Below, piece by piece: positions 6,903 to 52,415 of a DNA stretch of 64,000 nt. Below the pieces are notes generated by a model that did no database searches, had not been told where the DNA came from, and saw nothing but the letters and a program-made list of their open reading frames with translations. Made by a program: the position numbers and the translations under genes. The DNA is from Bradymonadia bacterium. Its GTDB lineage: Bacteria > Myxococcota_A > Bradymonadia > UBA7976 > UBA1532. Position 1 is the first letter of the stretch. Each line of letters opens with the position of its first letter. The stretch is taken from the NCBI GenBank assembly GCA_046290225.1, contig JBKAGE010000036.1, forward strand, positions 192,001 to 256,000, given 5' to 3'.

Positions 6903-8363
6903 CTACAGCCGCTCCATCCACCCTTCCTGCAACCTGCAGTGCACCTCAAAGCCGAACTTGCGATAGCAGGCGATGGCCGAGGCGTTGTCCTCTGCCACGT
7001 TGAGGGCCACGTACCCCACCCGCTCGAAGATGGCCTGCAGCACCCTGGACACCGATTTCGTCGCCAACCCCTGCCCGCGCTTCCCGGCGTGGGTCACCAT
7101 GTTCCCCACCACGGCGATGTCCTGAGCATCACTGAGCACGTGGATGCCCGCCACGCTCACCAGCTCACCGGCCTGCTTGACCCCGAAGTACATACCCGTG
7201 TCGAGCTGCGCGGGCTCGAAGAAGTTGTCGGGGTAGTACCGATAGAGCTGCATGATGGCCGCGGTGTCGCGGTGGGTCAGCTTCTCGATGGTCTCGTTCG
7301 GCGCAGGCTCCGAGGGCTGAGGCCGCCAGTCGCTGCGTTGGAGCGACATGCGGAGCACGGGCTTGACCGTGATGGGCCGGTAATACTGCGCGAAGGCGTC
7401 GGTGTGGGTCAGCGGGTGGCTCGCGAAGATCTTGCGCGGCAGCAGAGTGCGGGCCCTGGCCAGCAGCGCCATCACATCATCAGGACTGCCCATGGGGAGA
7501 ATGGCGGGCATGCTCAAGCCGCTGTACCAGAGCAGAACCCCCGTGAGGCCTTCCTCTGGCGAGTCCACCCCGAACCAGCGCGTGTGCTCGATGAACGGGT
7601 CATCGAGATCGCCGAGCTGGTAGGCCGCCATCATCCGATCGCGGAGCAGAAACGCCCGCAGCGCCTGATGATCGGCGTCGGTGAGCTGCCTCACCCGATC
7701 GACCCGGTGACGCACCCCCGCTTCGAGCTCGTCGAGCTTGGGGGCCTCGTGGGCCACGGGGATCGGCAGAAGCTCGTGAATCGATACGTCGATCGACCCT
7801 TCAGGCTCTTCGATCTCCGCCTCGAGCGTCTGCTCGGCCTCTTCGCTCTCCATGGCCACCGGCGGTGGGAGCAACTCTCCCTTGGGCACCACCTTCACGG
7901 GCCGGCTCCGGGGGGCCTTCGTCTTGTTGATGAGCTGTACCCCGCCGATGATCATGCCTTTGTCGATGGCCTTGAGCATGTCGTACAGGGTGAGGGCCGC
8001 CACGGTCACCGCCGTGAGCGCCTCCATCTCCACCCCGGTGCGGTCCACCGTCTCCACGATGCTGCTGATCTCGATGGCCTGCTCGTCTCGGAGCGGGGTG
8101 AAGTTCACCTTCACCGAGGTCAGCGCCAGGTGATGGCACAGCGGGATCAGATCAGAGGTCTTCTTCGCCGCCATGATCCCGGAGATGCGGGCGGCGGCGA
8201 GGACATCCCCCTTGGGGGCGTCACCATCGAGCACTTTTTGCAGTGTGCCGTGAGAGAGGAACAGCCGACCTTGGGCTGTAGCTCTGCGGATTTGTCGTGG
8301 CTTGCCGCCCACATCGACCATGTGGGCAGCCCCTTGGGCATCGAGATGTGTCAGATCGCTCAT
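6903..8363 (-). CDS. moaC: MoaC (cyclic pyranopterin monophosphate synthase) fused to a C-terminal GNAT acetyltransferase
   Basis: N-terminal [46 protein letters not shown]; acidic linker; C-terminal [16 protein letters not shown]...[19 protein letters not shown] (GNAT motifs A/B). Confidence 0.9.
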
Positions 8364-10111
8364 GTATGGGCTTTACGGCGCCGGCGCCTCACAGTCAAGA
8401 GACCGAGGGCTGCCCACCACCACACGCCCTGTTGAGTCCCCGCAGCTGTGGTGCAGCCACCACCGCCTCCGCCGCCATCGGCCCGCACCACGCCATCAGG
8501 GCCCACACCGCCGTCTCCGCCACCTGGGCCCTCCGGGCTCTCGGGATCATCAGGCATCTCCAGCGGCGGTCGCTCCCCGACGCACTCATAGCCGATGGTG
8601 TCCTGGCGATCAGGGGCACACTGCCCAAAGGTGATGACCTCCAGACACCCCCAACCATCTGGGCAGCAATTCTCCGCGTCACAGTTCCGCGTGCAGTAAC
8701 CTGGATCGACCACCTCCCGGCCGGAGATGACATACTCGACACAGACCAGGCCATCACCACAGATGGGCACCTCCCACGGGCGCTCCGGGTTTACCCAACA
8801 CGCATCGCCCATCTGACGCTGGCCGGCGCTGGGGATCTTCTGACACGCCCGGCCGTTGGGCACGTCGACACAGCGGTAGTCCGCCGGGCACGTGCCCCCA
8901 GGGCAATCGTTGGTGCAATAGGGCACCGTCTGCCCCGCCTCGTTGGTGTTGAGCGGATCTGACAGGCAGAACAGGTCATCACCACAGAGCCCCCGCTCTT
9001 CGGTGCACGGCTCTCCGAAGCCCGGCAGGGGCTCGCCTCCGTTGGGGCCGTCGCCGCGGGCACACACGGTGCCACCGCTGCGCAAGCTGGCGCAGAAGAA
9101 CCCATCGGGGCACATGCCGCCGACACATGGCTGGGAGCAATAGAAGTTCTCACCGTCGTTGATACAGAACAGCCCCTGCTCGCAGCCTACGCCATCACCA
9201 CAGGGCTCGTTGAAACCCGCAGTGGGCGGCGCTGGTGGCTCACCCCGGGCGCACGCCCCCGAGCCGCCGGACAGCTGAGCGCAGTAATAACCGTCAGGAC
9301 ACGTGTCGCTGCCGGGGCTACAGCTCTCGGAGCAATACAGCGCCTGACCGTCGTTGACGCAGAACAGCCCACTGGCGCAAGCCTGGGCGCTGCAATCATC
9401 GCCGAACATCGCCGCGCCAGGGCCACCGCCACCTCCGCCGGGATCATCGGGGATGGGATCAGGGACCTCGCCGCCATTGGGGTAGAGGTCACACGCCCCC
9501 TGAATGTCGTCTGCGCCGAGGGTGCGACCGCTCACGTCGCCGGGCCCCGTGGACGGCCACATGGTGGATCCGGAGACGTTGGTGTGATCGAGGCCCAGGG
9601 CGTGGCCCACCTCGTGGGCGGTGACGCTGGCGATGTCGGTCCGCCGCTCACCGCGACTCGACGAGGCCAGGGCCCCCCAGCTGTGATTCACACCGTTGTA
9701 CTTGATGTCGGTGTCCTGCAGGCGCTCCTGGAAGTCGAAGATCGACGCGGTGATGGCCAGGGCGGCGGCTGAGTCATCCCAACCCGAGTTGCGCCAGCTC
9801 ACCACGTTCTCGCCATCAGCAGAGCCCCAGGCGGTGTTGTCGGTGCGCCCCTCGTAGCGCCACGCCATCTGGCTGCACTCGAGCTCAGTCCAGACATCGT
9901 AGCCTTGTTGAATCGCCGCCAGTGCTTCTGCATCGGAGACCTGATCGTCGAGGCTGCGGTTCACGGTGTAGCCCACGGGCAGATCGGACCGGGTCCAGGT
10001 GGCCCCTGTGGGGTTGTAGGCCGAGGCAGTGCCTCCCAAGGCCATGCTCCCCAAAGTCAGCATGCCCCCGAGGCCCAGCAGCTTCACGACGCGGTGCATA
10101 TGCGTGCTCAT
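8360..10111 (-). CDS. Matrixin (M10-like metzincin) metalloprotease with Cys-rich repeats and MYXO-CTERM tail
   Basis: Signal peptide; [11 protein letters not shown] zinc motif with Met-turn (STMWP); four Cys-rich modules; C-terminal GGGC..TM..RRRRRK. Confidence 0.9.
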
Positions 10112-10770
10112 CGGATCCTCCTGATGGCTTTCTGCTGGTCAGGGTCGATCCGCTGGACCCCAGGCTGCAGTACGCGGGGGCCGCTGCGGGCGAGAATGCC
10201 CTTGAGCGCGTCGAGCTTCAGGGCGTCACTCTGCTGAGGCACCCCGTCGAAGCGCAATACGTCGTGATGCCTTTGAGGCACTCGGTTGAGATCGCCTACA
10301 GACCGACGCGCAACAGGACCGTCGGCCCCTGGCTCGAGGGTGTAGAGGCCCTGGGCCATGCCCGTGACCACCCATCGGCCCCCGGGGGTCTGCTCCAAGA
10401 ACACCAGCACCTCTTGCTGATCTTTGAAGGCCGCTACGCCGGGCACATGCATCTCGCGACGCGCGGTGCCCGCCCCCACCACACCTCCAGGCTGATCGAG
10501 GGTGAAGACCGGCTCGGCCCACTGACCCTTGAGCACCTCGTCGACCTCGATGCGCACGGTGGTCCTGATCTGGCCCTTGCCGTCGGGCATCTTGGCATCG
10601 TGGGCAACGATCTCTGCCACGTTGCCGGTGATGATGAGCGCCGACCGCTGCACGAGATCGGCCAGCTCGAGTTCGAGCACGGTGGTGGCCTCGGCGGTGG
10701 GCGCGTGACCCACGGCAGCGGCCCCAAGCAGGGCAGCGCACAACGTCAACGCGCGTGGACGGTGGAGCAT
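10108..10770 (-). CDS. Exported protein translationally coupled to the matrixin gene
   Basis: Signal peptide ending AEA-TT; LADLVQRSALIITGNV...VDEVLKG...QPGG...EVLVFL pattern; its stop overlaps the matrixin start (ATGA). Confidence 0.75.
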   Translation of the reverse strand: MLHRPRALTLCAALLGAAAVGHAPTAEATTVLELELADLVQRSALIITGNVAEIVAHDAKMPDGKGQIRTTVRIEVDEVLKGQWAEPVFTLDQPGGVVGAGTARREMHVPGVAAFKDQQEVLVFLEQTPGGRWVVTGMAQGLYTLEPGADGPVARRSVGDLNRVPQRHHDVLRFDGVPQQSDALKLDALKGILARSGPRVLQPGVQRIDPDQQKAIRRIR

Positions 10771-10884: not shown

Positions 10885-13800
10885 TTATGCCTCGGGGGGT
10901 AGTGTTTCGGGGGACGGTGTATCTTCTGGCAGTGGCTCGTCGAGGCGGGCCAGCTCCCCGGTGGCCTCGAGACGCTCGAAGAGCGCTCGGGCCTTCTCGC
11001 GGGCGTCTTCGGCCCTCTGTCGATCCCGACGGGACCACAGGCGCCATTGGGCGGCATAGACCTGGCCCAGCTCTACAGATGGCCCCAAGGGCCCCAGGTG
11101 GGCTTCGGCCTCTTTGATGTGCTCGATGGCGCTTGCGCCGTCACCTTGACGATCCCTGATCTCTGCAAGCGCCCTCAGAGCGGCCCCTGCCCTCGCGGCG
11201 TCGCCCTGAGCACGAGACAACTCCAAGGCAGCTTCAGCAGCTTCGACGGCGCCATCCAGCGTACCAGCGGCGAAACGCACGTCGGCGAGGATGCGCCATG
11301 CGTCGGGGAGCAGGTAACCAGGACCACGGCCCGACAAGCACAATTCGATGGCCTCGAGCAGGCGGGTTTCGGCCTCCTCGACCTCACCGAGTACGAGCAG
11401 GACCTCACTGAGGTTGGCGTATCCAACAGCGAGGCCTGCGTCGCCCGAGAGCGCCTTGATGCGGATCGACTCCAGCAAATAGTCCCGGGCCCGGGTGTAG
11501 TCTCCCTGGGTCCAGGCGAGGGTACCGAGGTTGTTGTAAGAGCGGGCGAGGCCCGGCCGATCCCCAAGGGCAGCCTTGAGCCTGAGGGCCCGCTGATGAT
11601 GAGCGGCGGCCTCCTGGTAACGCCCGTGCTCTTCAGCGAGGATCCCCAGATTGTTGTGGGTCTTGGCCTGCCACTGCTCCTCACCGGCGTCTTCGAACGC
11701 CACGAGGGCGCACCGGTATTGCTGATCTGCCAGGGCGGGATCACCCATAGCGTTGGCCACCACCCCGCGAACGTTGTGGACTGTCCCTGCGAGCCTCAAG
11801 ACCTCTCGTGCCATCCCCGGTGGGGTCGGCGTCGGCAAATGCCGCCGCACGTCGTGGAGCAGATCGAGCAGCATGAGGAGGGTCTCGGATGCCTCTGCGT
11901 ATCCACCCTGAAAATAGCTGCGCCACGCCTGGTCACGCTCGATGGCTGCACGGGCGAGCACCAGCTCCGGGGCGCCTTGTGGCCCGGCCTCCGCAACGCA
12001 GTCATGGGCTGTGGTGAGCAGCTCCGCCTTCCGAGCAGGGTCATCCTCCAACCACGCTCGACGCCGCCAGCGCTCCGCCCGCACGGCTGCAGGCGCTTTG
12101 GCATCACGGGCCAGGGCTGCGTCGAGGAGCCCCAGCGCCCGGCCCCGATCGCCCGCCCCCATGACCAGCTCGCTGAGCAGGACCTCCACCTCGGCGCGCT
12201 CGGCGACGGTCAAGGCCTCGGGGGCCGCATCATCCGCGGTGATGCAAGCCTCCAAGGCCCGCGTCGCCTCGCCCATGGCCCGAGCGTCCACGGCGAGATG
12301 CCCCGCCTTGGACCACGCCGCCGCAGCGCGGCCATGATCACCCGCGGCGTCAAAGTGCTGGCCAACACGGGGCCAGATGTCGGGGCCCTGGTGCTCGATC
12401 TCTTCTGACAGCCACAGCGCGGCGCGGCCATGCCAGGCTCTACGGCTCGCACCTGTGAGGCTGCTGTGGAGCACCTCTTGAATCAATCCGTGCTGGAACG
12501 CCCACGCAGTCATGCCAGGCTGGCTCGCTTCGAGCCTGGGCGTGATGAAGCGCTGGCGCTGGAGCTCGACGAGGGCCTCTCCGACTCCATGACCGAGCAG
12601 CCGCTCTACAGCCTCCTTCCAGAAAGTGCGCCCGAGGATGGAGGCTCCGCGGAGCACCTGCTGCTGGTCTGCTGGCAAACGATCGACCCGGGCGAGGATC
12701 ACCCCCTCCACGGTGAGAGGCAGCGCGGCGTCGTCACCCTGACGGTCCCGCTCCACGAAGGCCAGCTCGCGAATGAAGAGCGGGTTGCCTTCTGCCCGGG
12801 TGAGCAGCGCCGTCAGCGCCGGCCCCTCCAAGGGCAGAATCGTCCGGGCCACCGCTTCGGCGGCACGCCGTTCCAAGGGGCCGAGCTCTACGGTGACGTG
12901 GCCCGGACGCACCCGCTCGGGCCCTTGTCGCGCCATCCACTCTGGCCGCGCGGTGACCACCACCAGCACCTGAGACAACCCCAGACCCAACTCGTCGATG
13001 ACTGCCAGGCCTTCGGGGCCCATCCAGTGGGCATCTTCGATGACCACCATCACCGGCGTGCGTCGCGCCACCCCCTCGATGACTCGGCGAAAGGTCGCCG
13101 GCAGTACACCTGGGGCCGTGAGCTCACCGCCACCCACCTGGCCCACGCCGAGCACCGCGCTCAGCACCCCGAGTCGGTCCATGAGAGCGGGGCCACGCTC
13201 CATGGGCCGGTGGGCGAGCAGGGCATCGATGGATGCGATGCCACCTTCGATGGGGCTGTCCCCTTCAGCGTCCAGTCCGCGGAGCAAACGCCTCAGTGCA
13301 TGACGTTTCTCCTCTGCAGAGTCTGTAGGGCTGACCTCGGCGAGGGCACACAGCACCTCGGCGAGGGCGGTGAGATCAGAGCCCTCACCCAGGGTGGGGT
13401 TGTGACCCCGAGCCACCAGGCACCGATGGCCCACCCGTTCGATGAGAGCATCCACCAGGCGGGTCTTGCCCATGCCTGCAGGCCCGAGCACGGTGATGGC
13501 CCCCTGCCCTGCGCCCTCGAAGACACCCGTGGCCACCTCCACCATGTGGCCCAGCTCCACCGAGCGCCCGATGAGTGGTGCATCCACCGAGATGCGCGGC
13601 GCCTGCACAGCTGCGATCCGACCGACGCTGTGGAGGACATGCAGCCCCTCAGGCAGCGCCCAGACCTGGGCCTCGGCGTGCAGCAGGCCGGGCCCCGTGA
13701 TGACACCCTCGTGCTCGGTCACGGCCCCTGACTCCACCACCACAGTGGCCGTAGACCACGTCTTCGCAAAGCCTTCTGCGGCCTTCAGCGCCCTGCTGCT

Positions 13801-15051
13801 GTCGTTCTCGAAACTGATGGGCCAGCCGAAGAGTGCCCCGTCGACGACCCCGTGCTGAGGCAACGCGGTGCCCCCGAGACGATCGACCTGCTCGAGGAAC
13901 GTCCGTCTGAGAGCGCTGCGCCAGCGGGCCATCGGCTCTGCCTCGGTGAGATCAGAGGGGCTGCGATGCTTCACCATCACCACAGCGGCCCGCCGCACCC
14001 CGGGCGTCGGACCCTGTTGGGCAGTCTCTGCAACCTTGAAGTAGGCGTCGAGCGGGTGACCCAGCAGCCGATAGGCCGCCCATACGGGCCAACCCTCGCC
14101 ATGAGCCTTCACCCGCGCTTGCCGCAAGGCCTCGCCCACGGTCTCGCCGGTCCAGAGCGCTTCATAGAACCAACGTGCAAAGTCGGCCCCGGGCAGGTCG
14201 GGGAGATCGACCACCGTGCCGATCCAATGACGAATCCCAGTGCGCAAGAGCTCCGAGACGAGCCCGCCATCTTCGGAGCGACAGGCGTTGGCGAAGACCA
14301 GTGAGGGCGCGCCCTGACCCCCGAGAGGTTGCACATGGGCCTCGGTGAGGTGGCCGTCGCCGAACCGCCACCCTCCAGGCTGCGGATCGTGGTGCCCGGC
14401 GAAGTGCAGCAGATGATAACCGCGGAACACCCGCTGGGCGTCGGCGACGGCCATATGCCCGCCGCGCAGATCACATTGCACGCCCCCACGCTCGGCGCTC
14501 AAACGCATCAACGCCTCCCCCTCCACCCGAGCGGCAGGCAGGTCGCCGGCTGGATCGGCGATGACCAGCATGCGGTGGCCAGAGTGGGTACTCTGAGCAG
14601 GCTCCAGCCTCAGCTCGCCCCCCCGGAGCCGCGCACCGAGGGCGAAGCGCAGACCCAGTGGGGCGACCCCGTCGTGCAGGAGCGGCCAGGGCCAGGCGCT
14701 CAGTGTGTCATCAGTGACGAGGGTGAGGGCGGCGTGGTGCTGCCCCCATCGCCGGAGGGCTGACTTGACCTGTGGGGGCAACATCAAGTCGAAGAGAATG
14801 CGTCCGTGGGCCGTGAGGGCCTCGGGGATCTGCCGGCCTCGCGCCCCGCTCTGACGCATCCAGCGCTTGAGCGTGCGGCCGAGGGCGCGCCGTTCACCTT
14901 GCAAACGCTCTGTATCCACAGCGTGACGGCCCACCCAGACCCTGGGGCCATGACGCCCGTCTCTCTGGGTGGTGGAGAGCCGACACACAACGGTGTCGGC
15001 GCCTTCGAAGGCCACGTCGAGTTCGATATGCAGCGGACCGTCTCCCATCAC
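10885..15051 (-). CDS. CHAT (caspase-like) protease / degenerate class III cyclase-like / STAND AAA ATPase / TPR multidomain protein
   Basis: CHAT: WPWPLLHDG, IADPAGDLPAARVE, HFAGH (His), FANAC (Cys), GEALRQAR..WAAYRLLGHP. Cyclase-like: GALFGWPISFENDSSRALKAA. ATPase: LIGRSVEL, GPAGMGKTRL, VIEDAHW, EGNPLFIREL, FQHGLIQE. C-terminal TPRs (HNNLG, YNNLG). Confidence 0.9.
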   Translation of the reverse strand: MMGDGPLHIELDVAFEGADTVVCRLSTTQRDGRHGPRVWVGRHAVDTERLQGERRALGRTLKRWMRQSGARGRQIPEALTAHGRILFDLMLPPQVKSALRRWGQHHAALTLVTDDTLSAWPWPLLHDGVAPLGLRFALGARLRGGELRLEPAQSTHSGHRMLVIADPAGDLPAARVEGEALMRLSAERGGVQCDLRGGHMAVADAQRVFRGYHLLHFAGHHDPQPGGWRFGDGHLTEAHVQPLGGQGAPSLVFANACRSEDGGLVSELLRTGIRHWIGTVVDLPDLPGADFARWFYEALWTGETVGEALRQARVKAHGEGWPVWAAYRLLGHPLDAYFKVAETAQQGPTPGVRRAAVVMVKHRSPSDLTEAEPMARWRSALRRTFLEQVDRLGGTALPQHGVVDGALFGWPISFENDSSRALKAAEGFAKTWSTATVVVESGAVTEHEGVITGPGLLHAEAQVWALPEGLHVLHSVGRIAAVQAPRISVDAPLIGRSVELGHMVEVATGVFEGAGQGAITVLGPAGMGKTRLVDALIERVGHRCLVARGHNPTLGEGSDLTALAEVLCALAEVSPTDSAEEKRHALRRLLRGLDAEGDSPIEGGIASIDALLAHRPMERGPALMDRLGVLSAVLGVGQVGGGELTAPGVLPATFRRVIEGVARRTPVMVVIEDAHWMGPEGLAVIDELGLGLSQVLVVVTARPEWMARQGPERVRPGHVTVELGPLERRAAEAVARTILPLEGPALTALLTRAEGNPLFIRELAFVERDRQGDDAALPLTVEGVILARVDRLPADQQQVLRGASILGRTFWKEAVERLLGHGVGEALVELQRQRFITPRLEASQPGMTAWAFQHGLIQEVLHSSLTGASRRAWHGRAALWLSEEIEHQGPDIWPRVGQHFDAAGDHGRAAAAWSKAGHLAVDARAMGEATRALEACITADDAAPEALTVAERAEVEVLLSELVMGAGDRGRALGLLDAALARDAKAPAAVRAERWRRRAWLEDDPARKAELLTTAHDCVAEAGPQGAPELVLARAAIERDQAWRSYFQGGYAEASETLLMLLDLLHDVRRHLPTPTPPGMAREVLRLAGTVHNVRGVVANAMGDPALADQQYRCALVAFEDAGEEQWQAKTHNNLGILAEEHGRYQEAAAHHQRALRLKAALGDRPGLARSYNNLGTLAWTQGDYTRARDYLLESIRIKALSGDAGLAVGYANLSEVLLVLGEVEEAETRLLEAIELCLSGRGPGYLLPDAWRILADVRFAAGTLDGAVEAAEAALELSRAQGDAARAGAALRALAEIRDRQGDGASAIEHIKEAEAHLGPLGPSVELGQVYAAQWRLWSRRDRQRAEDAREKARALFERLEATGELARLDEPLPEDTPSPETLPPEA

Positions 15052-15116
15052 CGGCGTGTGTTACCACGGCCCTGGAGGCCGAGGCCAACGGATGTGGCAT
15101 CGATCTCGCGGAACCG

Positions 15117-15147
15117 GTGTAAGGTGTGCGCCGTGGGGCCGTCTGGT
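15117..15147 (+). promoter_or_regulatory. Putative ECF sigma promoter, copy 1 (GTGTAAGG-N15-CGTCTGGT)
   Basis: Same -35/-10-like boxes and spacing as 17930-17960; about 40 bp upstream of the ATG at 15187. Confidence 0.7.
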
Positions 15148-15186
15148 CCTGGCCTGACTTCAGTCGTCGCGAGGTACGAGAGTCAA

Positions 15187-16734
15187 ATGAGCAGGTGGCG
15201 CAAGTTCGAGGGCCGACCCCGAGGGGTGCTGGCGAGTGTACTGGTCCTGGTCCTGGTCCTGGGCTGTGGCATCACCCGCGAGCCCGAGGGCAACACAGGT
15301 GGTGCTGGTGGTGGCTTCGGCGGTGCAGGGGCTGAAGGCGGCGCCGGTGGCCAAGGCGGTGCCGGTGGCGAAGCTGGCTTCGGTGGTCAAGTGGGCGGTG
15401 CAGGTGGCGGCGGTGGCGCTGGCGGTGAGGCCGGCGGTGGCGGCGCGCCTGGTGGTGCCGGAGGCGGCATGGGTGGCGGTGGCGGCGCTGGCGGCTTCCC
15501 CGGTGGCATGGGCGGAGGCGGTGGCATCGTGCCGGACATCTGCTCTCAGTTGTGCCAGGGCGTGGTGCCGTGCCTTGTAGATGGAGATCCACCCATCTGC
15601 CCCGATTTGGACCTCGAAGATCCCGAGGGACGCATGCAAGCACAGGACGGCTGTGTCGCTGCCTGCGAGACACGGCCCGACCTTTTCGAGGACGCACCAG
15701 AGGTATCGTGTGAGGTCATCCTCGACCAGATGCTGCGCACGACGCCGGCATTCGGCGCGGTCTGTGGCCCGGACCTCTACACACCCTGCCCCGATGACGT
15801 ACCTCTCCTCGAAGGGGTCGTCGACGAGCACACCTTGTCGGTCGTCGACGACACCCTCGGGGGCACCACAACCCATTCCGGTACCTGTGGTGGTGTGGGG
15901 CCAGAGCTGATGTACCGGTTCGAGGCCCCTGTTCCAGGCCTCTGGGACTTCTTCCTCGAAACCGAAGCCCCGGAAAACGCACCCGATGCGGTCCTCCATC
16001 TGCGCTCGCTCTGCGATGTCCGTCCCACGGAGCTCGCTTGCAGCGCCGACACCCCAGATGGTCGCGCCGCGGTGCGCATGCGGCTCGAGGGCGATGCATC
16101 TGTCTTCGTGTTCGTCGACTCACTGACCCCCGAGGGCGGCCCCTTCACCCTCACCATCCGGCGCGTCGAGGAGATCCCTGAAGGCCAGCCCTGCGAAGTG
16201 GCCTCTGTGGAGCATGTCTGTGTCGAAGGGCTGCTGTGCCTGCCGTCGCTGATGGAAGATGGCTCTGTCTGCCGATTGCCCGCGCCCCCTCTCGTGGAGA
16301 TGGGGGAGGCCTTCTACAACACCGCGACTGGTGGCTTCGGCGCTCGGCTGACAGCCCACGCGGAAGCCCCTCTGACGGGGTATCGCTATACCCTCCTCGA
16401 TCCCGAGCAAGTGCCCATCGCCACTGAGAGCGGCCAGGGGCCTTTCGTCACTGAGGGCTTCCACATGGTGAGCCGTCCAGATCCCATGGGCCCCTACGCC
16501 CTCACGCTCCTGGAGACGTTGCCTGCGCAGCTCGAGGGACTGGCCACTGTGCGGCTGCAGCTCCTCGACACCTTTGGGGCTGAGGGCCTGGAGATCGATC
16601 TCCCCGTGCAGCCCTCCCTCGTCGCCGACTCTGGCGGTGCGTGTGATCCCGACGGGATCTTCACCCTCTGCCCTGAGGGTGAGCGATGTGCAGTCGAGGT
16701 CGAGCCCCCCACCTGCACACCCGTGGAGGAGTGA
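15187..16734 (+). CDS. Lipoprotein with Gly-rich linker, Cys-rich segments and a beta-sandwich (PPC-like) domain
   Basis: MSRWRK...VLVLVLVLG-C lipobox; poly-Gly tract; GTCGGVGPELMYRF..DAVLHLRSLC..ELAC module. The upstream ORF extension overlaps the CHAT gene and is discarded. Confidence 0.8.
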   Translation: MSRWRKFEGRPRGVLASVLVLVLVLGCGITREPEGNTGGAGGGFGGAGAEGGAGGQGGAGGEAGFGGQVGGAGGGGGAGGEAGGGGAPGGAGGGMGGGGGAGGFPGGMGGGGGIVPDICSQLCQGVVPCLVDGDPPICPDLDLEDPEGRMQAQDGCVAACETRPDLFEDAPEVSCEVILDQMLRTTPAFGAVCGPDLYTPCPDDVPLLEGVVDEHTLSVVDDTLGGTTTHSGTCGGVGPELMYRFEAPVPGLWDFFLETEAPENAPDAVLHLRSLCDVRPTELACSADTPDGRAAVRMRLEGDASVFVFVDSLTPEGGPFTLTIRRVEEIPEGQPCEVASVEHVCVEGLLCLPSLMEDGSVCRLPAPPLVEMGEAFYNTATGGFGARLTAHAEAPLTGYRYTLLDPEQVPIATESGQGPFVTEGFHMVSRPDPMGPYALTLLETLPAQLEGLATVRLQLLDTFGAEGLEIDLPVQPSLVADSGGACDPDGIFTLCPEGERCAVEVEPPTCTPVEE

Positions 16735-17267
16735 TGAGACGCCCCTTTCACGCATATCTACGCTGGCTGACATATGCCTCTGCGCTCACGCTGACTCTGG
16801 CCACGGTCGTGCCCGGGTGCGGCATCACTCGAGAGCCCGAGGGTCAGAGTGACGCCGACGGCGGCTTCGCTGGTGGTGGAGGCGCTGGCGGCGGTGCCGC
16901 AGGTGCTGGTGGTGGCGCTGCGGGTGCTGGCGGCGGCGTCGGAGGTGCTGGTGGGGGGATGCAGGGCCGAGACGCATTTATCCCTGAGATGGACGCGTTC
17001 ATCGCCCCTGATGCCCTGATTGGCGAAGACGCTGGACTGCCGGACGCAGATCTCCCTGATGGCGAATTTGCCGATGGGGGCTTCCTGGACGGCGATCTCC
17101 CTGATGGAGAGATCGAAGACGGCGGTCTCTTCGACGGTGATCTCCCCGACGAGGGCTGGCTCGACGGCGATTTGCCCGACGGTGATCTCGCAGACGGTGA
17201 GCTGAGCCTCGATGCAGATCTTGATTCCGACTCGGGCATCATGCTCGATGACGCTGAGGCCCCCTGA
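16734..17267 (+). CDS. Small lipoprotein with Gly/Ala linker and highly acidic DGDLP-type repeats
   Basis: TGATG coupling to the previous gene, GGAGGA RBS, lipobox VVPG-C; mature N-terminus CGITREPEG is identical to that of the previous gene. Confidence 0.75.
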   Translation: MRRPFHAYLRWLTYASALTLTLATVVPGCGITREPEGQSDADGGFAGGGGAGGGAAGAGGGAAGAGGGVGGAGGGMQGRDAFIPEMDAFIAPDALIGEDAGLPDADLPDGEFADGGFLDGDLPDGEIEDGGLFDGDLPDEGWLDGDLPDGDLADGELSLDADLDSDSGIMLDDAEAP

Positions 17268-17299
17268 TCGCTGGGGGCGCCACAGTCTGTCCGGAGATC

Positions 17300-17929
17300 A
17301 TGACTGCCCCCGACGATCACACCCTGCTCCTCCGCTGCATCGACGGCGACGGCGACGCCTGGCATCTGCTGGTGGGGCGCTTCACCCGCTATGTCTATCA
17401 CCTCATCCGTGCGACGGCGCATCGCTACAACGCGGCGCTCTCCGAGGCCGCTGTCGCTGACTTGCACAATGATTTGTTCCTGGCCCTGCTGGAGGACGAT
17501 CGGCGCCGCCTGAGAGCCTACGAGGGTAAGAACGGCTGCTCGGTCCGCAGCTGGATCCGCATCATCACGATCCGCCGCACCCTCGACCATCTGCGCCGTC
17601 AAAAGCCCACGTTGAGCCTCGACGCCCTCACAGATGACTCGGAGGACCGCGCCACCATGCCCGAGCCGGTCGATCCGGGGCCTGATCCTCTGGAACACCT
17701 CATCGAGCAGGGGGCTCAACGCCGACGAGAGGCCCTCGGGGACATCGCCTCGGCGTTGAGCGACGCTGATCGCTTGCTGCTGTCGCTCATCTACGAGCGT
17801 CAAATGCCGGCGCCACAGATCGCCGCCCTGCTCCGGGTGAAGGTGGGGGCGGTCTATACGCGAAAGAACCGCCTCATCGCCCGCCTGAGACGCCTCGCAG
17901 AGGCAGGAGGATGGCTCGATGAAGCTTGA
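17300..17929 (+). CDS. ECF-family RNA polymerase sigma factor
   Basis: Region 2 (DGDAWHLLVGRF, DLHNDLFLALL, LRAYEG..SVRSWIRII..TLDHLRR) and region 4 (LSDADRLLLSL..QIAALL..GAVYTRKNRL); GGAG RBS. Confidence 0.92.
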   Translation: MTAPDDHTLLLRCIDGDGDAWHLLVGRFTRYVYHLIRATAHRYNAALSEAAVADLHNDLFLALLEDDRRRLRAYEGKNGCSVRSWIRIITIRRTLDHLRRQKPTLSLDALTDDSEDRATMPEPVDPGPDPLEHLIEQGAQRRREALGDIASALSDADRLLLSLIYERQMPAPQIAALLRVKVGAVYTRKNRLIARLRRLAEAGGWLDEA

Positions 17930-17960
17930 GTGTAAGGCTTGTCTCTTTCTGACGTCCGGT
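17930..17960 (+). promoter_or_regulatory. Putative ECF sigma promoter, copy 2 (GTGTAAGG-N15-CGTCCGGT)
   Basis: Starts right after the sigma stop codon, about 40 bp upstream of the anti-sigma ATG; matches 15117-15147. Confidence 0.7.
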
Positions 17961-18001
17961 GCACCCAAGTCATCTGACACAGCTTCGGAAAGGAGAGGAT
18001 C

Positions 18002-18676
18002 ATGAGCCACCATCGTCTGTCCGACGAGATCCTGGCGCTCTATCTCGAGGGCCGCCTCGACGGCCCCGAGCTCGACGCGGTGCACCGTGCGCTCGCGGCG
18101 GATCCAGCTCTTCAAGAGGAGCTGCTCCTCCTCGCAGGTGTGGTCGACGTGGAGCCCTCTCTCGACTTCACCCCCTCTGAGGCCATGGTGGCTTCTTTGT
18201 CGAAGAGCGCCACCGATCTGTGGGCGAAGATGGTGCCTTCGACGACACAGGTGAAGTCCGACGCCCTGCTCTCGGTGGCGATCCGCTGGCTCGGGGACTG
18301 CCTAGCTCCTCTGGCGGAGGCGCTTCAGCCCCTGACGCTGCAGACGGCCATGGTCCGGGGTGCGGCTCAGCCTCAAGGGGCTGACGAGCTCCGGTATCAC
18401 GTGACGCTCGCTGATTTGCCTCTGGAGATCGATCTGGCCTCTGAGGGCCCTGGTCGAGCCTCTCTCTTCGTCCGCCCCCTCTCGCCTCCACCGACGGGTC
18501 TGATGATCCGCCTGGCCCTGGGCGGTGAGACCCGAGCGATGAGCCTGCTTTCGGCGGAGGGTGCGTCGATGGACTCGCTGATGCCCGGGGCGTATGAGCT
18601 TATTTTAGAGCAATCAAATCAACCTGTTGCACGCTTGGAGATGTGTTTGTTCGCAGAAGATGATTCGAATGCTTGA
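18002..18676 (+). CDS. Putative soluble anti-sigma factor (ASD-like N-terminus, C-terminal beta-rich domain)
   Basis: HRLSDEILALYLEGRLDGPELDAVHRAL resembles zf-HC2/ASD but lacks the CxxC; no TM helix; central MVRG motif; directly follows the ECF gene. Confidence 0.75.
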   Translation: MSHHRLSDEILALYLEGRLDGPELDAVHRALAADPALQEELLLLAGVVDVEPSLDFTPSEAMVASLSKSATDLWAKMVPSTTQVKSDALLSVAIRWLGDCLAPLAEALQPLTLQTAMVRGAAQPQGADELRYHVTLADLPLEIDLASEGPGRASLFVRPLSPPPTGLMIRLALGGETRAMSLLSAEGASMDSLMPGAYELILEQSNQPVARLEMCLFAEDDSNA

Positions 18677-18720: not shown

Positions 18721-18793
<73 letters not shown>

Positions 18794-18809
18794 CCGAAGC
18801 GCTTTCACG

Positions 18810-24291: not shown

Positions 24292-27200
24292 TCATCGAAT
24301 CAGCAAGTGGCTGCTGTGGTACCAGCTGTTGTTGCCGCCCATGCCTGAGCCCCAATAGTTCCCGTACATGTAGTTCGAGGTGCTGCTGCCCAGGTAGGCG
24401 TAGTTGCTCACGTGGAACAGGGCCAGGTAGTTGTTGTTCGAAGCGCGGGGGTACCAGTAGTAGTAGCCCGAAGCCGAGCTGCCACCCACATCCGTCCAGC
24501 CGCTGGCGAAGTTGAGCTTGTAGTAGAGGTTGTCGCCCGAGGTGAGATCCTGGTTCGTGCCGTAGTTGGGCATGATGTTGCGGTTCTTCACGCGGTGGAT
24601 CACCTTGCGACCCCAGTTGTCCCAGCCAGGGCTGAAGTTCCCCTGGTCGAGCACGATGCCGAACTCGATGGGCCACTCCACACCGGCGAGCACACGCCAG
24701 TCGGTCCAGGCGCCGTCACTGTTGGGCTGCGCCTCGTACTCCGGGCGGCCGATGAAGGCATCCTGTCGGGCCACCATGTAGAGCGCGTAGTCGCGGTTGG
24801 CGTGGCCCGCAGGGGCGAAGGCCTGGGCGCCGCGCTTGTAGTTGCCCACCACCGTCCAGCCGCCGCCGTCCGTGGTCATGTCGCAGTACACGTTGAAGGG
24901 ATCGATGCCGCCCTCACCATCGGGATCGATGCGGTACACGCCGTCGCCGATGTCACCCTCGTAGCGCAGGTTGACGTCGGTGGGGTTGCGGTAGTCGTTG
25001 CAGGTCGCGGCGTAGCCGTCGTTCTGGTAGGCGCGGTAGCCCGCCTCCATCAGGCGGATCTGACCGCACTCGTCGTCACCCATCGAGCCGCCGATGCCCG
25101 GATCGCCGTTGATGTCCATGCACACGCCGATGGTGACCCCACCACAGCCCACGGCCTGGCAGTCCCCCTCGCCGATGCGCACGTTCTCCCGGATGAAGGT
25201 GCTGTGACCCACAGTGGTGTCGGGGTAGATGACCACGCCATTCTCCACCGTCACGTCATCCTCGAACTCAGCCTCCTCGCGGATCAGCACATTGTCGCCC
25301 ACGGTGAGGTTGTGGCCGAAGGTGCTGCGGGGCCAGATGCGGCTGTTGGTGCCCACGGTGAGGTTGTCGCCGATGGTGACCTGCTCGTCGATGATGGTGT
25401 CGTTGCCCACAGTGGCGCTGGCGCCGATGGAGGTTCGGAACAGGATGGTGCAGCTCTCGCCGATGCTGCCATCCTCACCAAGGACCACGCCGTCGTAGAT
25501 ACCCGTGGTGGCGCCGACGCTGCAGCGAGCGCCCAGGTCGACGAAGATGCCCAGGCTCACGTCGTCGAAGAGCTCGCACTCGTTCCCGACGACACTCTGG
25601 TTCCCGACGAATACGTTGTCGTGCAGGGTGGCCGACTCGCCCACGTCGCCGCGGACCTCACAGCCCCCACCCAGAGTGGCGTTGCTGCCCACCGTGGCCC
25701 CAGAGGCCAGCTCCGCGCCGTCACCGAGGGAGACGCCGTCGCCCACCGTGGTGAAGTCGCTGATCACCACGTTCTCGCCAAGGGTCAAGTCGTTGCCGAT
25801 GGTGTTGTTCGGACCGATGCTGGAGCCGGCACCAGCGTTAAGGCTGTTGCCGACCTGCGTGTTCGAGCCCACCGAGGTCCCCGCAGCGAGGGTGGCGTCG
25901 TCACCGAAGTTCGAGCTGTTCCCCACCGTCACGCCGGCGGCGATGCTGGCGCGGTCACCGAAGATCGTGAGCTCGCCGATGCTCGCCCCGGCGCCGATGC
26001 TGCTGTCAGCACCCACCTCCACCTTGGTGGCCAGCTGGCAGCCGTCACCGAGGCTTGAGTTGGCGCCCACGGAGACCAGGATCCCCAGGGCACAGTTGGC
26101 GCCTACCGCGGTGTTGTCACCGATTTGGCTGTTGGTGCCCACAGAGGCACCGGCACCAACGCTCGCTCCAGCGCCCACGACGACGCCCTGGCTCACCGAG
26201 CCATAGACCGAAGCCCCGTCGCCGATGTGAGCATAGGGACCGATGACAGCGTTCTCCCCGATGAGCAGGCTGCTGCCCAGAACAGCGGTCTCTGCGATGT
26301 TCGCGCTGACGCTCACACAGGCGTCGCCGAAGCCATCACCGTTGTTGTCTGCCTGATCAGCGTTCGACACGTGGGGGCAGTTGTCGACGTCCTGGCAGAT
26401 GCCGTCGCCATCATCATCGTTGGTGGCGTCAAAGGCACATGCATCACAGGCGTCGCCAGCACCATCGCCATCACTGTCGGCCTGATCAGCGTTCGCCACG
26501 AGCGGGCAATTGTCGTCACTGCAGACGCCGTCGCCATCAACGTCGTCACACTTCGGCCGATCAGAGAGCGCAACCACATTGAAGGCACCATTCAAGGGGA
26601 CATAGGACAGGCTGTTACCCATCTCCCCATTGTTGTCGCCGCGATTGCTGGTGTCGCCGAGTCCCAACTGACCATAGTTGTTCCAACCCCAACACTTGAC
26701 ACCACCCTGGTCGAAAAGGGCGCACTGGCTATAGATGGCCATGTTGATCTCTTTGATGGTCAAGCCATCGCCGAGGGGCACCCTGTTCAGGTTGTTGCCC
26801 ATCTCCGCAGCGCTGCTGCCGAGGTTGGTGGTGTTGCCGGTACCAAGCTGACCTTGAGCGCCATAACCCCAGCACTTCAGGGTGCCGTCGGTGAGCTCGG
26901 CGCAGACATTGTAGACATCCACCCAGATGTTCTCAGCCAGCAGAGGATTCCCGCTACCATCGGTACCGAGATCCACATAGCTTTCATTGCTGGGGTTGGA
27001 GACGTTGCCACCAGCGCTGCGGCCCAGCTGCTCATAGCTGTTGTTGCCCCAGCACTTGACCCGCTGGTTGTCCAACAGCGCACAAACAGTACCCCACCCG
27101 ATGCCAACTTGGAGGGCGGTGCGGCCGGGGCCGAGATCGATGGCCGGCAGATTGTCACCCATCTCATTGGGGGCATCCCCCCGGTTTCCGCCACCACCGA

Positions 27201-27909
27201 GGCCGTTCTGGCCATAGTTGTCGACGCCCCAGCACTTCAACGCGCCGTTGTCCAAAATCGCGCAGCTGTTGTGATACCCGGCGGCGATGTCCACGGCTGT
27301 GCGACCGGCGCCGAGCTCAGCGTAGCCGAGGTTGTCACCCATCTCGCCGGCCTGATCACCCATGAAGCCGGAGTGGCCGAGGCCCGACTCCCCGTGGCTG
27401 TTGTAGCCCCAGCACTTCACCTTGCCGTTATCGAGGATCGCACATGTGTGATAGGTCCCGGCGTCGACATCCACCGCGTAGCGCCCAGTACCGAGCTGAA
27501 CCGCCGGAAGAGCGTCGCCCATCTCGTTGGCTTGGTCACCATAGTTCGCGGTGGTGCCCAGACCCGTCTGACCATATTGGCCATTGCCCCAGCACTTCAG
27601 CTGATCATTGTCGAGGATGGCGCAGCTATGGCTCCACCCGCTGTTGATCTGTTTGACTGAGCGACCAGTGCCGAAGTTGATGAACGGCAGGTTGTCACCC
27701 ACCTCACCACCACCATCGCCCAGGCTGGTTGTGGAACCCTGGCCGAGCTGACCGTGAGAGTTGTAGCCCCAGCACTTTGCCTGGCCGTTCTCGAAAAGCG
27801 CACAGTGATGATAATCATGCACCGCGAGGGCAGAAGAAGTGCCCAGCAGGGTCAGCACCCCTGCGGCGCCGAGCGCCTTCAGCAGTGAACGGTGAGAAAT
27901 CGTGGTCAC
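24292..27909 (-). CDS. Secreted RCC1-repeat / TSP3 / hexapeptide (LbH) / fibrinogen-like multidomain protein
   Basis: GTG start after GGAGG; signal peptide; about 7 KCWG.N..GQLG RCC1 repeats; DNCP..N.DQ.D TSP3 repeats; long [IVL]G-x4 hexapeptide run; [20 protein letters not shown] fibrinogen motif. Confidence 0.88.
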
Positions 27910-28015
27910 GGCAGCCTCCAGACACACACATCATATTGAGAGGTCAGCATGTGTAGGAGGCTACCGCATATAGAAAGAGAAAGACACACTCAGTGTGCCC
28001 CGATCTCATTTTGGG

Positions 28016-52176: not shown

Positions 52177-52415
52177 CTCGACCACCTCCACATGTAAGCC
52201 CTAAATATCATTCTGCTTTAACCTGCTATAACGCACGTATTCCAATCATGCGGGAGCATACTCAACCGACCATGAATTGTGAATACAAAGGCGCCTCTCA
52301 ACATACATTGGAGACAATATCACCCAATAGAAACACTGACCCACTTTGAACCCACTCGATCGAGCGAAACAGCAACACGTGGCAGTGGTGAATCTGTAGA
52401 GGGGAAGGCGCCGCT

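Follow-up and report, generated by a model that had tools for sequence, protein, structure and literature searches.

The window analysed here is a stretch of 64,000 nucleotides from the genome of a Bradymonadia bacterium (8.6 Mb, 99% complete), corresponding to positions 192,001 to 256,000 of contig JBKAGE010000036.1. Its positions 10885..18676 hold a gene for a CHAT protease fused to a STAND NTPase and tetratricopeptide repeats (P0001), placed divergently to an operon coding for two lipoproteins and a sigma factor of the extracytoplasmic function (ECF) type (P0004), which is followed by a gene for a soluble anti-sigma-like protein (P0005). A preliminary description of this DNA had reported such an arrangement, and all five of its open reading frames (ORFs) were recovered (Table 1). 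The locus is probably a proteolytic sigma switch, real and conserved as a feature. The divergent operon was borne out by the lipoboxes of both lipoproteins and by P0004, which passed the TIGR02937 cut-off (59.2 vs 42.9 bits) and contains sigma regions 2 and 4 only, as ECF sigma factors do. The start of lipoprotein 1 was set by us at ATG 15187 instead of the GTG 14806 given by the ORF finder, because the promoter and the lipobox fit the former.

In P0001, Pfam profiles matched CHAT at residues 82-331 (E 2e-20), AAA_16 at 492-693 (E 2e-13) and TPR_12 at 1091-1159, and the motifs HFAGH, FANAC, GPAGMGKT (Walker A), VVIEDAHW (Walker B-like) and GNPLF start at residues 216, 253, 523, 669 and 755, respectively; no clear transmembrane (TM) segment was present (best hydropathy 1.78). 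The AlphaFold2 model of residues 1-340 (pLDDT 91.6, pTM 0.92) presented the caspase-like fold of the CHAT/separase-like members of clan CD, with a pseudo-caspase and an active domain, and its best fold matches were separase (5fc2, E 4e-13) and Csx29 (8eey), with E values of 4e-13 to 1e-10. A phmmer search of the PDB with the single CHAT region of P0001 gave nothing useful, whereas the CHAT profile succeeded, its best sequence match being SAVED-CHAT (8tl0, E 9e-12). This alignment indicated H220, the second His of HFAGH, and C257 as the catalytic pair; in 8tl0, 47 residues separate the aligned His from the aligned Cys, the same spacing as between the SAVED-CHAT residues H375 and C422, which were mutated in 10.1101/2023.06.23.546230. 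Among 55 CHAT sequences C257 was invariant and H220 was kept in at least 90%, so that the intact His/Cys dyad first described was corroborated. Judged from its sequence, P0001 is a protease of the separase-like CHAT type fused to a STAND-TPR region, for which proteolysis and Arg specificity are predicted.

The preliminary description overlooked a cyclase-like domain at residues ~346-490, as well as the two promoters and the invariant arginine treated below. The profile of this domain matched the adenylate cyclases 6fht (E 0.0015) and 2w01 (E 0.0031), matches that were graded as weak because a NUDIX hydrolase scored slightly better (E 0.0008). The domain is presumed to be inactive in P0001 since the Asp of its KFMGDG-type motif is replaced; clear Guanylate_cyc domains are present in other members of the same CHAT clade. 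As for the STAND part, P-loop Walker A and B motifs, a GxP helical-domain motif and C-terminal repeats were all found, and the Walker A Gly, Gly and Lys were invariant in 39 sequences, in agreement with the STAND ATPase and repeats reported at first. The name 'NLR' given to the protein did not hold in the strict sense, because Pfam yielded AAA_16 and AAA_22 alone, with no NB-ARC or NACHT match at E<=0.1. The TPR region was 33-47% identical to that of relatives, the same as the STAND domain, and hence is not hypervariable. STAND proteins with an adenylyl cyclase or kinase domain in front are said to form the SWACOS type of Leipe 2004, and the NTPase of P0001, an AAA_16 STAND behind a presumably dead cyclase-like domain, may be SWACOS-like, although the cyclase match is weak (E 0.002-0.003); one relative is a CHAT-AAA_16-kinase protein. 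SWACOS is mentioned in PMC7159879 and PMC13236601.

Table 1. Features of the locus and its flank, in window coordinates
Feature	Position	Strand	Basis
P0001, CHAT - presumed dead cyclase-like - STAND - TPR protein, 1388 aa, predicted cytoplasmic	10885..15051	-	Pfam, hydropathy
P0001, TPR region with NNLG-type repeats, putative peptide or protein sensor	10888..12351	-	TPR_12 and TPR_MalT matches
P0001, STAND NTPase (AAA_16) with GNP motif	12352..13578	-	Pfam and motifs
P0001, Walker B-like	13024-13047	-	Motif
P0001, Walker A	13462-13485	-	Motif
P0001, degenerate class III nucleotide-cyclase-like domain	13582..14016	-	Weak profile match
P0001, N-terminal alpha/beta (pseudo-caspase-like) domain and active CHAT domain (catalysis predicted)	14032..15051	-	AlphaFold2 model, fold matches
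P0001, C257 codon	14281-14283	-	Dyad Cys
P0001, H220 codon	14392-14394	-	Dyad His
Predicted ECF promoter P1, TGTAAG-N16-CGTCTGGT, ~70 nt 5′ of lipoprotein 1	15117..15147	+	
Lipoprotein 1, 515 aa, lipobox Cys27	15187..16734	+	
Lipoprotein 2, 177 aa, lipobox Cys29	16734..17267	+	
P0004, ECF sigma factor, 209 aa	17300..17929	+	TIGR02937
Predicted internal ECF promoter P2, 5′ of the anti-sigma gene, putative negative feedback	17930..17960	+	
P0005, soluble anti-sigma-like protein, 224 aa	18002..18676	+	
Arg119-Gly120 of P0005, predicted CHAT cut site	18356..18361	+	Invariant column
tRNA-Phe(GAA), flanking	18721..18795	+	

The soluble anti-sigma-like protein and its invariant arginine

P0005 had been described as an anti-sigma-like protein devoid of TM segments, which agrees with its best 19-residue hydropathy of 1.27 and with the profile matches of its homologues. 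It comprises a helical part resembling a class I anti-sigma domain (ASD), a disordered linker (residues 113-124) and an Ig-like beta-sandwich (129-216); in its model, three N-terminal helices were observed and Arg119 was placed in a low-confidence loop. P0005 itself gave no Pfam match at E 0.1, while zf-HC2 was matched by 32 of 60 homologues at a loose cut-off and by 11 of 26 at E<=0.05. The zinc CxxC was kept in 46 of the 60 and lost in the window copy, and in some family members the ASD resembled RsrA/ChrR-type models. The helical N-terminal ASD, together with homologues matching zf-HC2 and anti-sigma models, places the protein among the class I (zf-HC2) anti-sigmas, for which sigma binding is predicted; the sigma gene was found immediately 5′ of the anti-sigma gene at 18 of 18 fetched relative loci. 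A Foldseek search with the model returned no match at E<=0.001, only generic Ig/Fn3 folds, and the ESM Atlas returned unnamed clusters of 200-250 aa at 0.94, to be taken as leads only (Spirochaetota, Planctomycetota, Chloroflexota and Thermodesulfobacteriota), with no DUF1822 among them.

Arg119 was the sole invariant column in the alignments of 26 and 60 homologues. It was kept in 58 of 58 homologues below 80% identity (66 before thinning), of which 44 had the zinc Cys, and was preceded by small hydrophobic residues and followed by G in 41, S in 10, D in 3, A in 2, N in 1 and R in 1. In a linker window anchored at the first Ig strand, R[GSAND] occurred in 58/58 sequences, against a mean of 22.7 and a maximum of 33 in shuffles, and hydrophobic-hydrophobic-R-[GSA] in 49/58, against a mean of 5.5 and a maximum of 12; other real windows of the anti-sigma gave 3-12, bar one downstream of the linker with 28. 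Moreover, a Leptospira anti-sigma that was found via its CHAT, and lies outside the set that defined the motif, carries M-R-S-A at the linker. Arg119 is probably the scissile residue for CHAT, a prediction made because an invariant Arg followed by a small residue stands in an otherwise variable, gapped and disordered linker, and because it matches the mapped cut site of HetF. This protease cuts PatU3 between R117 and S118, and changes of R117 block the cleavage (PMC9457339); separases likewise cleave after Arg (PMC11506125). The HetF model was matched by 20 of 55 members of the CHAT set, below its cut-off (best E 3.5e-8).

The prediction of a complex between CHAT and residues 78-224 of P0005 scored 0.60, against 0.00 for the best control, with at least 81% contact agreement between runs and a partner pLDDT of at least 78. 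The mark used for such scores was reached by 116 of 157 solved pairs and 2 of 215 mismatched pairs; at scores of 0.60 or below, it was reached by 18 of the 157 solved pairs and by both passing mismatches, and the support is weak. The cleavage of the anti-sigma by CHAT proposed at the outset thus gained a candidate site and a weakly predicted complex, the cut itself remaining a prediction.

Conservation of the trio and its promoter motif

Of the 31 genomes of the order, 17 carried the anti-sigma, 18 the CHAT-cyclase part (E<=1e-20) and 21 the sigma factor (E<=1e-22), which in two of them is represented by a paralogue only. Both anti-sigma and CHAT were present in 16 genomes and neither in 12; the 3 genomes with one partner are 70-89% complete and have the locus at a contig end. 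At 20 relative anti-sigma loci, the CHAT gene was divergent and adjacent at 14, and a contig edge was met at 2, so CHAT-STAND homologues do adjoin the ECF/anti-sigma pair in relatives, a co-occurrence whose absence the preliminary description had named as refuting its proposal. Two genomes with three loci each also have three CHATs each, with matching copy numbers, and in two pairs of paralogous loci all three proteins were nearest to the same locus of the sister genome. The pairwise identities of CHAT, sigma and anti-sigma correlated at 0.62-0.68 over 42 trios, which is expected of kin and is no proof. The host genome presented 11 CHAT matches, and P0001 alone adjoins this sigma/anti-sigma pair. 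Across 401 sampled genomes of the phylum, an anti-sigma of the window type was strongly matched only in this family and on one contig of another family; a count of 287/401 obtained with the anti-sigma profile was discarded as mostly generic zf-HC2 N-termini, and 13 of 20 fetched weak matches were unrelated anti-sigmas. CHAT was adjacent to 6 of 7 distant full-length matches.

The association extends beyond STAND proteins. A metagenome scan with the CHAT alignment provided the best 80 of 90 confirmed CHAT loci, several of them near-duplicates, of which 79 passed the profile. The anti-sigma was found near 32 of the 44 loci of this CHAT clade, and both partners near 28, while it was found beside other CHAT proteins at 0 of 35 loci; among the 33 clade loci with at least 2.5 kb upstream, the anti-sigma was present at 26 and both partners at 23. 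The 24 proteins scanned for architecture included cyclase-CHAT-TPR-CsgG, CHAT-DUF4384, CHAT-CHASE2, CHAT-Sel1, CHAT-TPR and CHAT-AAA_16-kinase forms, with TM segments judged by eye. In a FastTree phylogeny (midpoint root) built from 64 CHAT domains, all 29 proteins of the cyclase-STAND-TPR type fell into a single clade (0.998), whose sisters were two other STAND fusions (0.95); a third STAND fusion was placed elsewhere, and deep nodes were weak. A Leptospira interrogans record (L248:2987-5900) contains consecutive genes for sigma, anti-sigma (profile match at E 2e-9) and CHAT, and this DNA, though filed as plasmid, is probably chromosomal because dnaE adjoins the trio. Judged by such profile matches, other lineages combine membrane sensors with the same CHAT clade, sigma and anti-sigma, and the Arg-small-residue linker is shared by every sensor type of the clade, the Leptospira record included.

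Further forms were observed in this clade. The cyclase-CHAT-TPR-CsgG proteins of L174-L190, with a strong Guanylate_cyc match, lie in sigma/anti-sigma operons, a possible link of cyclic nucleotides to a CHAT protease. In another family, a CHAT-AAA_16-protein kinase fusion (L154:4076-9311) is divergent from a sigma-like gene and an anti-sigma with Arg-Ser. The membrane-sensor trios of L007, L008, L153, L187 and L189 are followed by one or two more exported TPR-CHAT genes, and in L007 and L008 the DUF4384-like domain and the TPR-CHAT protein carry L/T-R-G-I/L-G-G motifs, possibly further cut sites.

With respect to the promoters, GTGTAAG-N16-CGTC matched the window twice, 5′ of lipoprotein 1 and 5′ of the anti-sigma gene, against 0 matches in 100 shuffles, the pattern having been derived from the same two sites on which it was then scored. 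The motif was kept at both positions in most relatives, giving the consensus YGTAAG-N15/16-CGTCNRGT, and was absent at four extra paralogous loci of two genomes (G011 and G012). Related TGAGA/TCAGG-N-CGTC sites were seen by eye 5′ of the anti-sigma in three membrane-sensor loci, and no motif was found on the CHAT strand 5′ of the CHAT gene. The strict pattern had 93 matches in the 21 sigma-positive genomes, at least one in each, and 5 in the 10 sigma-negative genomes, 3 of these 5 in one fragmented congener of positive genomes; about two dozen of the 93 were the module's own sites, and the reversed pattern gave 23 and 10, respectively. The strict form alone was informative, because in the genome the loose one, without the final NRGT, favoured no particular spacing. 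The sigmas of a second clade (L108-L112) were left out, having neither anti-sigma nor CHAT nearby; they are paralogous ECF sigmas that carry an N-terminal extension and whose neighbourhood is conserved in 5 genomes.

The genes downstream of the motif point to a small exported regulon. For this analysis, 58 regions around matches were fetched and ~16 skipped, giving 60 sites, or 57 after removal of 3 that lay too close to the end of a contig. At 43/57 sites, against 387/3000 random positions, a ribosome-binding site and start followed at 40-95 nt; 38 of these 43 genes looked exported, against 1237/3062 gene-like starts of the host genome, and 32/43 had a lipobox-like motif, against 579/3062. 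Pfam assigned DUF2330, on whose function no report was found in the papers listed by a literature search, to 10 of 55 downstream genes (8 genomes), vWA to 5, DUF3160 to 3 and beta-propellers to several, many having no family. In the host genome, the strict pattern had 5 sites, namely the module's two, one at a DUF2330-like gene (C56), one at a lipoprotein (C70) and one without a clear gene, and a weight matrix added two lipoprotein-like or exported genes. Two kinases and one AAA_16 protein were found more than 120 nt from the motif. Small Cys-motif proteins (65-77 aa) stand 3′ of the motif in three genomes (L085, L091 and L094) and are among the few non-exported candidates. The predicted output is probably exported proteins and lipoproteins, not defence genes.

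The two lipoproteins of the operon have only the lipobox and the mature N-terminus CGITREPE in common. Lipoprotein 1 continues with a Gly-rich linker and a Cys-rich body with paralogues elsewhere in the genome, and lipoprotein 2 with Gly-rich and acidic repeats. A relaxed motif, C-x-F/W/I-T-x-E-P-E/D, spanning ~8 residues after the lipidated Cys and derived from the STAND-type loci themselves, was found at 24 of 37 such loci, a further 3 having variants of it, and at none of the 28 loci taken for comparison, which are of membrane-sensor or other non-STAND types; outside the motif the proteins vary in length, from ~125 to 650 aa. It occurs 4 times in the host genome, 3 of them after a lipobox. 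Where the module is split, the lipoprotein gene stays with CHAT in two genomes and with sigma in one. At L169:4300-7000, at least 5 short lipoprotein ORFs with the mature N-terminus C-T/A-AFRDHSPG are divergent from a CHAT-STAND gene.

Among the housekeeping neighbours of 28 loci (duplicate records counted), matrixin-like genes occurred at 11, MoaC-GNAT at 6 and cobalamin adenosyltransferase at 6. In the window, a hypothetical gene and a matrixin-like secreted protease (8360-10770, minus strand), 3′ of the CHAT gene on the same strand, represent these conserved neighbours; the pair stays with sigma/anti-sigma in L034 and L035, where CHAT has moved, and with CHAT in L107. The tRNA-Phe gene beside the module was not kept in the relatives examined, and its use as an integration site was rejected because the GC content is flat and the neighbours are conserved. 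As first reported, no cas genes were present: PADLOC found none among the 37 other ORFs of the window, where it matched a kinase, a NUDIX protein and, over ~60 aa of a Cas9 model, a stand-alone HNH protein of 171 aa; nor did a crude test for repeats reveal a CRISPR-like array in either the window or the whole genome. Elsewhere in the window, two regions (24295-27927 and 42829-52191) encode large secreted proteins with RCC1 repeats and PKD repeats, respectively, each with a long hexapeptide (LbH) repeat region.

A probable proteolytic switch and its alternatives

For most bacterial CHAT proteases no substrate is known, and fusions of STAND and caspase domains are usually interpreted as switches for death or defence. 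For the present locus, it is fairly likely that CHAT is gated by the STAND-TPR region and, by cutting the anti-sigma after Arg119, sets the sigma factor free. At rest, the soluble anti-sigma would sequester the ECF sigma through its N-terminal ASD, as in its family, and its linker and Ig-like half may be recognised by CHAT, as the complex prediction suggests. A ligand, probably a peptide or protein, would bind the TPRs and switch on the STAND region, as is usual for STAND proteins, and the fused separase-like CHAT would then become active. After the cut at Arg119, the ASD fragment with its unstructured tail would be degraded or let go of sigma, and the freed sigma would transcribe a small regulon of exported proteins, lipoproteins and its own operon from YGTAAG-N15/16-CGTCNRGT; more anti-sigma, made from the same type of promoter, would reset the switch. 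The motif and its targets are seen in the sequence, and we infer that P0004 reads them; likewise, the earlier proposal that sigma induces the lipoproteins gained a conserved promoter 5′ of the operon, whose assignment to this sigma is presumptive. We propose that the system serves to remodel the envelope or surface, and not to kill the cell or defend it against phages.

Several points weigh against this proteolytic switch. A cut at Arg119 leaves the sigma-binding ASD whole, hence a second step, degradation of the fragment, is needed; the same puzzle is discussed for Csx30 (PMC10028731), and HetF is reported to keep PatU3 low in vivo (PMC9457339). The count for the Arg pattern is biased, since the profile that collected the homologues contains the Arg column, and one real window downstream of the linker, which overlaps the linker in many rows, also gave a high count (28/58). 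The complex score was weak, gave no interface and may reflect memory of the solved Csx29/Csx30 or separase/substrate complexes. Furthermore, the window ASD has no zinc CxxC, CHAT is elsewhere in the genome at 4 of the 20 anti-sigma loci, and the compared loci are non-independent kin, several of them near-duplicates. On the side of the regulon, export was called by a crude hydropathy and lipobox rule, and two genomes (81% and 87% complete) have the motif together with a paralogous sigma only, with no anti-sigma or CHAT beside it, so that recognition of the motif may not be limited to one sigma.

An improbable alternative is a counter-invader system, in which a phage or parasite protein is sensed by the TPRs and answered, through the CHAT-sigma relay, with a defensive or suicidal response. 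Such a conflict-system reading is held by Kaur et al. 2021 and for Avs and Craspase, phage sensing is common among STAND-TPR proteins that carry N-terminal effectors (10.64898/2026.01.04.697583), and the other CHAT-sigma circuits DdvA/DdvS and Csx29 control defence. However, Pfam found no defence family among the genes 40-95 nt 3′ of the motif (55 genes scanned; PADLOC was not applied to them), the module is mostly single-copy with its housekeeping neighbours kept, the TPR region is no more variable than the STAND domain, and in PADLOC P0001 itself has a generic TPR match only. The phage-challenge assay suggested in the preliminary description is the less likely read-out, because exported proteins are the predicted output.

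It is also rather unlikely that CHAT acts on itself or on another substrate, with the anti-sigma as a docking partner or inhibitor, Arg119 as interface and partner switching as the means of freeing sigma. Activation as autopeptidases has been proposed for EACC2-caspase proteins (Kaur et al., PMC8195603), membrane-type CHATs of the clade show, by eye, their own Arg-Gly/Ser motifs in the post-protease linker, and the CHAT/anti-sigma prediction fits binding as well as cutting. Nevertheless, a single invariant Arg plus small residue in a variable disordered linker resembles a scissile bond and matches the mapped HetF site, and the consensus of the STAND-type CHATs has no conserved Arg-Gly linker of its own. 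A neighbourhood without direct functional link, with the anti-sigma under zinc or redox control like RsrA/ChrR, is very improbable: some members resemble RsrA/ChrR-type ASDs and 4/20 loci are unlinked, but the trio is maintained in different lineages and orientations and when sensors are swapped, the anti-sigma occurs with this CHAT clade only (32/44 vs 0/35), and the window copy keeps Arg119 without zinc ligands.

Returning to the cleavage of the anti-sigma, a further proposal, possible though doubtful, is an inflammasome-like monitor of the cell's own lipoprotein export, in which a T-x-E-P-type peptide, from an unexported precursor or a re-imported fragment, would be the TPR ligand. If true, a self-peptide signal would reach transcription through a STAND-gated caspase-like protease and a single Arg cut in an anti-sigma. 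More generally, the module offers a named candidate substrate, a predicted cut site of one residue, a promoter consensus and a predicted non-defence regulon, so that the relay is testable with four genes.

Comparison with known systems

The nearest published description is that of Kaur et al. 2021 (PMC8195603), who predicted neighbourhoods of EACC2-caspase, ECF sigma and DUF1822 genes, including STAND fusions. These proteins likewise combine a constant N-terminal alpha+beta domain and caspase with a variable C-terminal sensor (CHASE2 and TM, kinase or STAND), one supplement row being EACC2+CASPASE+STAND+TPRs, and they adjoin an ECF sigma and a small partner gene independently of CRISPR, as a prediction only. 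Variable sensors (DUF4384, CHASE2, TPR-CsgG, Sel1, AAA_16-kinase and cyclase-STAND-TPR) with a nearby ECF gene were found in the present clade too, and P0001 has a modelled alpha+beta N-terminal domain that may correspond to EACC2. In contrast, the published rows are cyanobacterial bar one gammaproteobacterium, the partner is DUF1822 (annotated TRADD-N+TPR) instead of zf-HC2 plus Ig-like, and the available text proposes autoproteolysis and names no anti-sigma, cut site, promoter or regulon. DUF1822 (PF08852) was not found in the genome at E<=5, remote homology being possible, nor among 25 of the 32 families listed for the 60 anti-sigma homologues, and no cyanobacterial EACC2-caspase/DUF1822 pair was found in 7 plasmid regions.

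In Anabaena PCC 7120, the CHAT protease HetF cuts PatU3, which sequesters the regulator HetZ, on the C-terminal side of an Arg that precedes a small residue (R117|S118), with a developmental, non-defence output (PMC9457339, PMC7377430), and its model is the one weakly matched by 20 of the 55 CHAT members. Unlike P0001, HetF is a CHAT-TM-TPR protein at the divisome with no STAND, and the text of the paper never terms HetZ a sigma factor (0 occurrences). In type III-E systems, the separase-like CHAT Csx29 cuts the soluble two-part anti-sigma Csx30 in its linker, the C-terminal part docking on the protease and the N-terminal part binding an ECF sigma (PMC10028731, 10.1101/2022.08.17.504292). However, Csx29 is triggered by Cas7-11 and target RNA, has the order TPR-CHAT and lacks STAND; here P0004 fell below the CASP-sigma cut-off (23 vs 100 bits), and no Csx30/Csx31, SAVED or cas genes were present at the locus, which separates it from type III-E CASP and type III-B SAVED-CHAT loci alike. 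DdvA/DdvS of Myxococcus xanthus (PMC11506125) shares a Myxococcota ECF sigma, a zinc ASD, a CHAT domain and a known promoter-level output, but in DdvA the CHAT, of unproven activity, is fused to the anti-sigma, is periplasmic and controls CBASS/CRISPR, whereas the present locus has separate genes and no TM, not an ASD-TM-TPR-CHAT single chain. Finally, the SAVED-CHAT/PCaspase system of Haliangium (10.1101/2023.06.23.546230) has an oligomerisation-activated CHAT and a sigma gene in the locus, but is activated by cA3 via SAVED and cuts PCaspase, not an anti-sigma.

The term CHAT is absent from the main texts of the ECF reclassification preprint (10.1101/2019.12.11.873521) and the 2026 STAND survey (10.64898/2026.01.04.697583), whose supplements may list the group, and a literature search that covered few subscription journals found neither a CHAT gated by STAND and paired with a zf-HC2/Ig anti-sigma, nor the Arg site of the latter, nor the present promoter. 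The independence from CRISPR stressed in the preliminary description holds for the window and is not itself new, because HetF/PatU3 and the EACC2-caspase, ECF and DUF1822 neighbourhoods are already CRISPR-independent. The three-part logic thus has precedent, while no earlier description was found of the gate of a presumed dead cyclase and STAND, the predicted scissile Arg, the promoter or the exported-protein regulon. If the proposed relay is true, a STAND protein would govern transcription via proteolysis, and, because the Arg-small linker is kept across sensor types, the single mapped case of HetF/PatU3 would extend to a widespread protease/anti-sigma/ECF family with swappable sensors.

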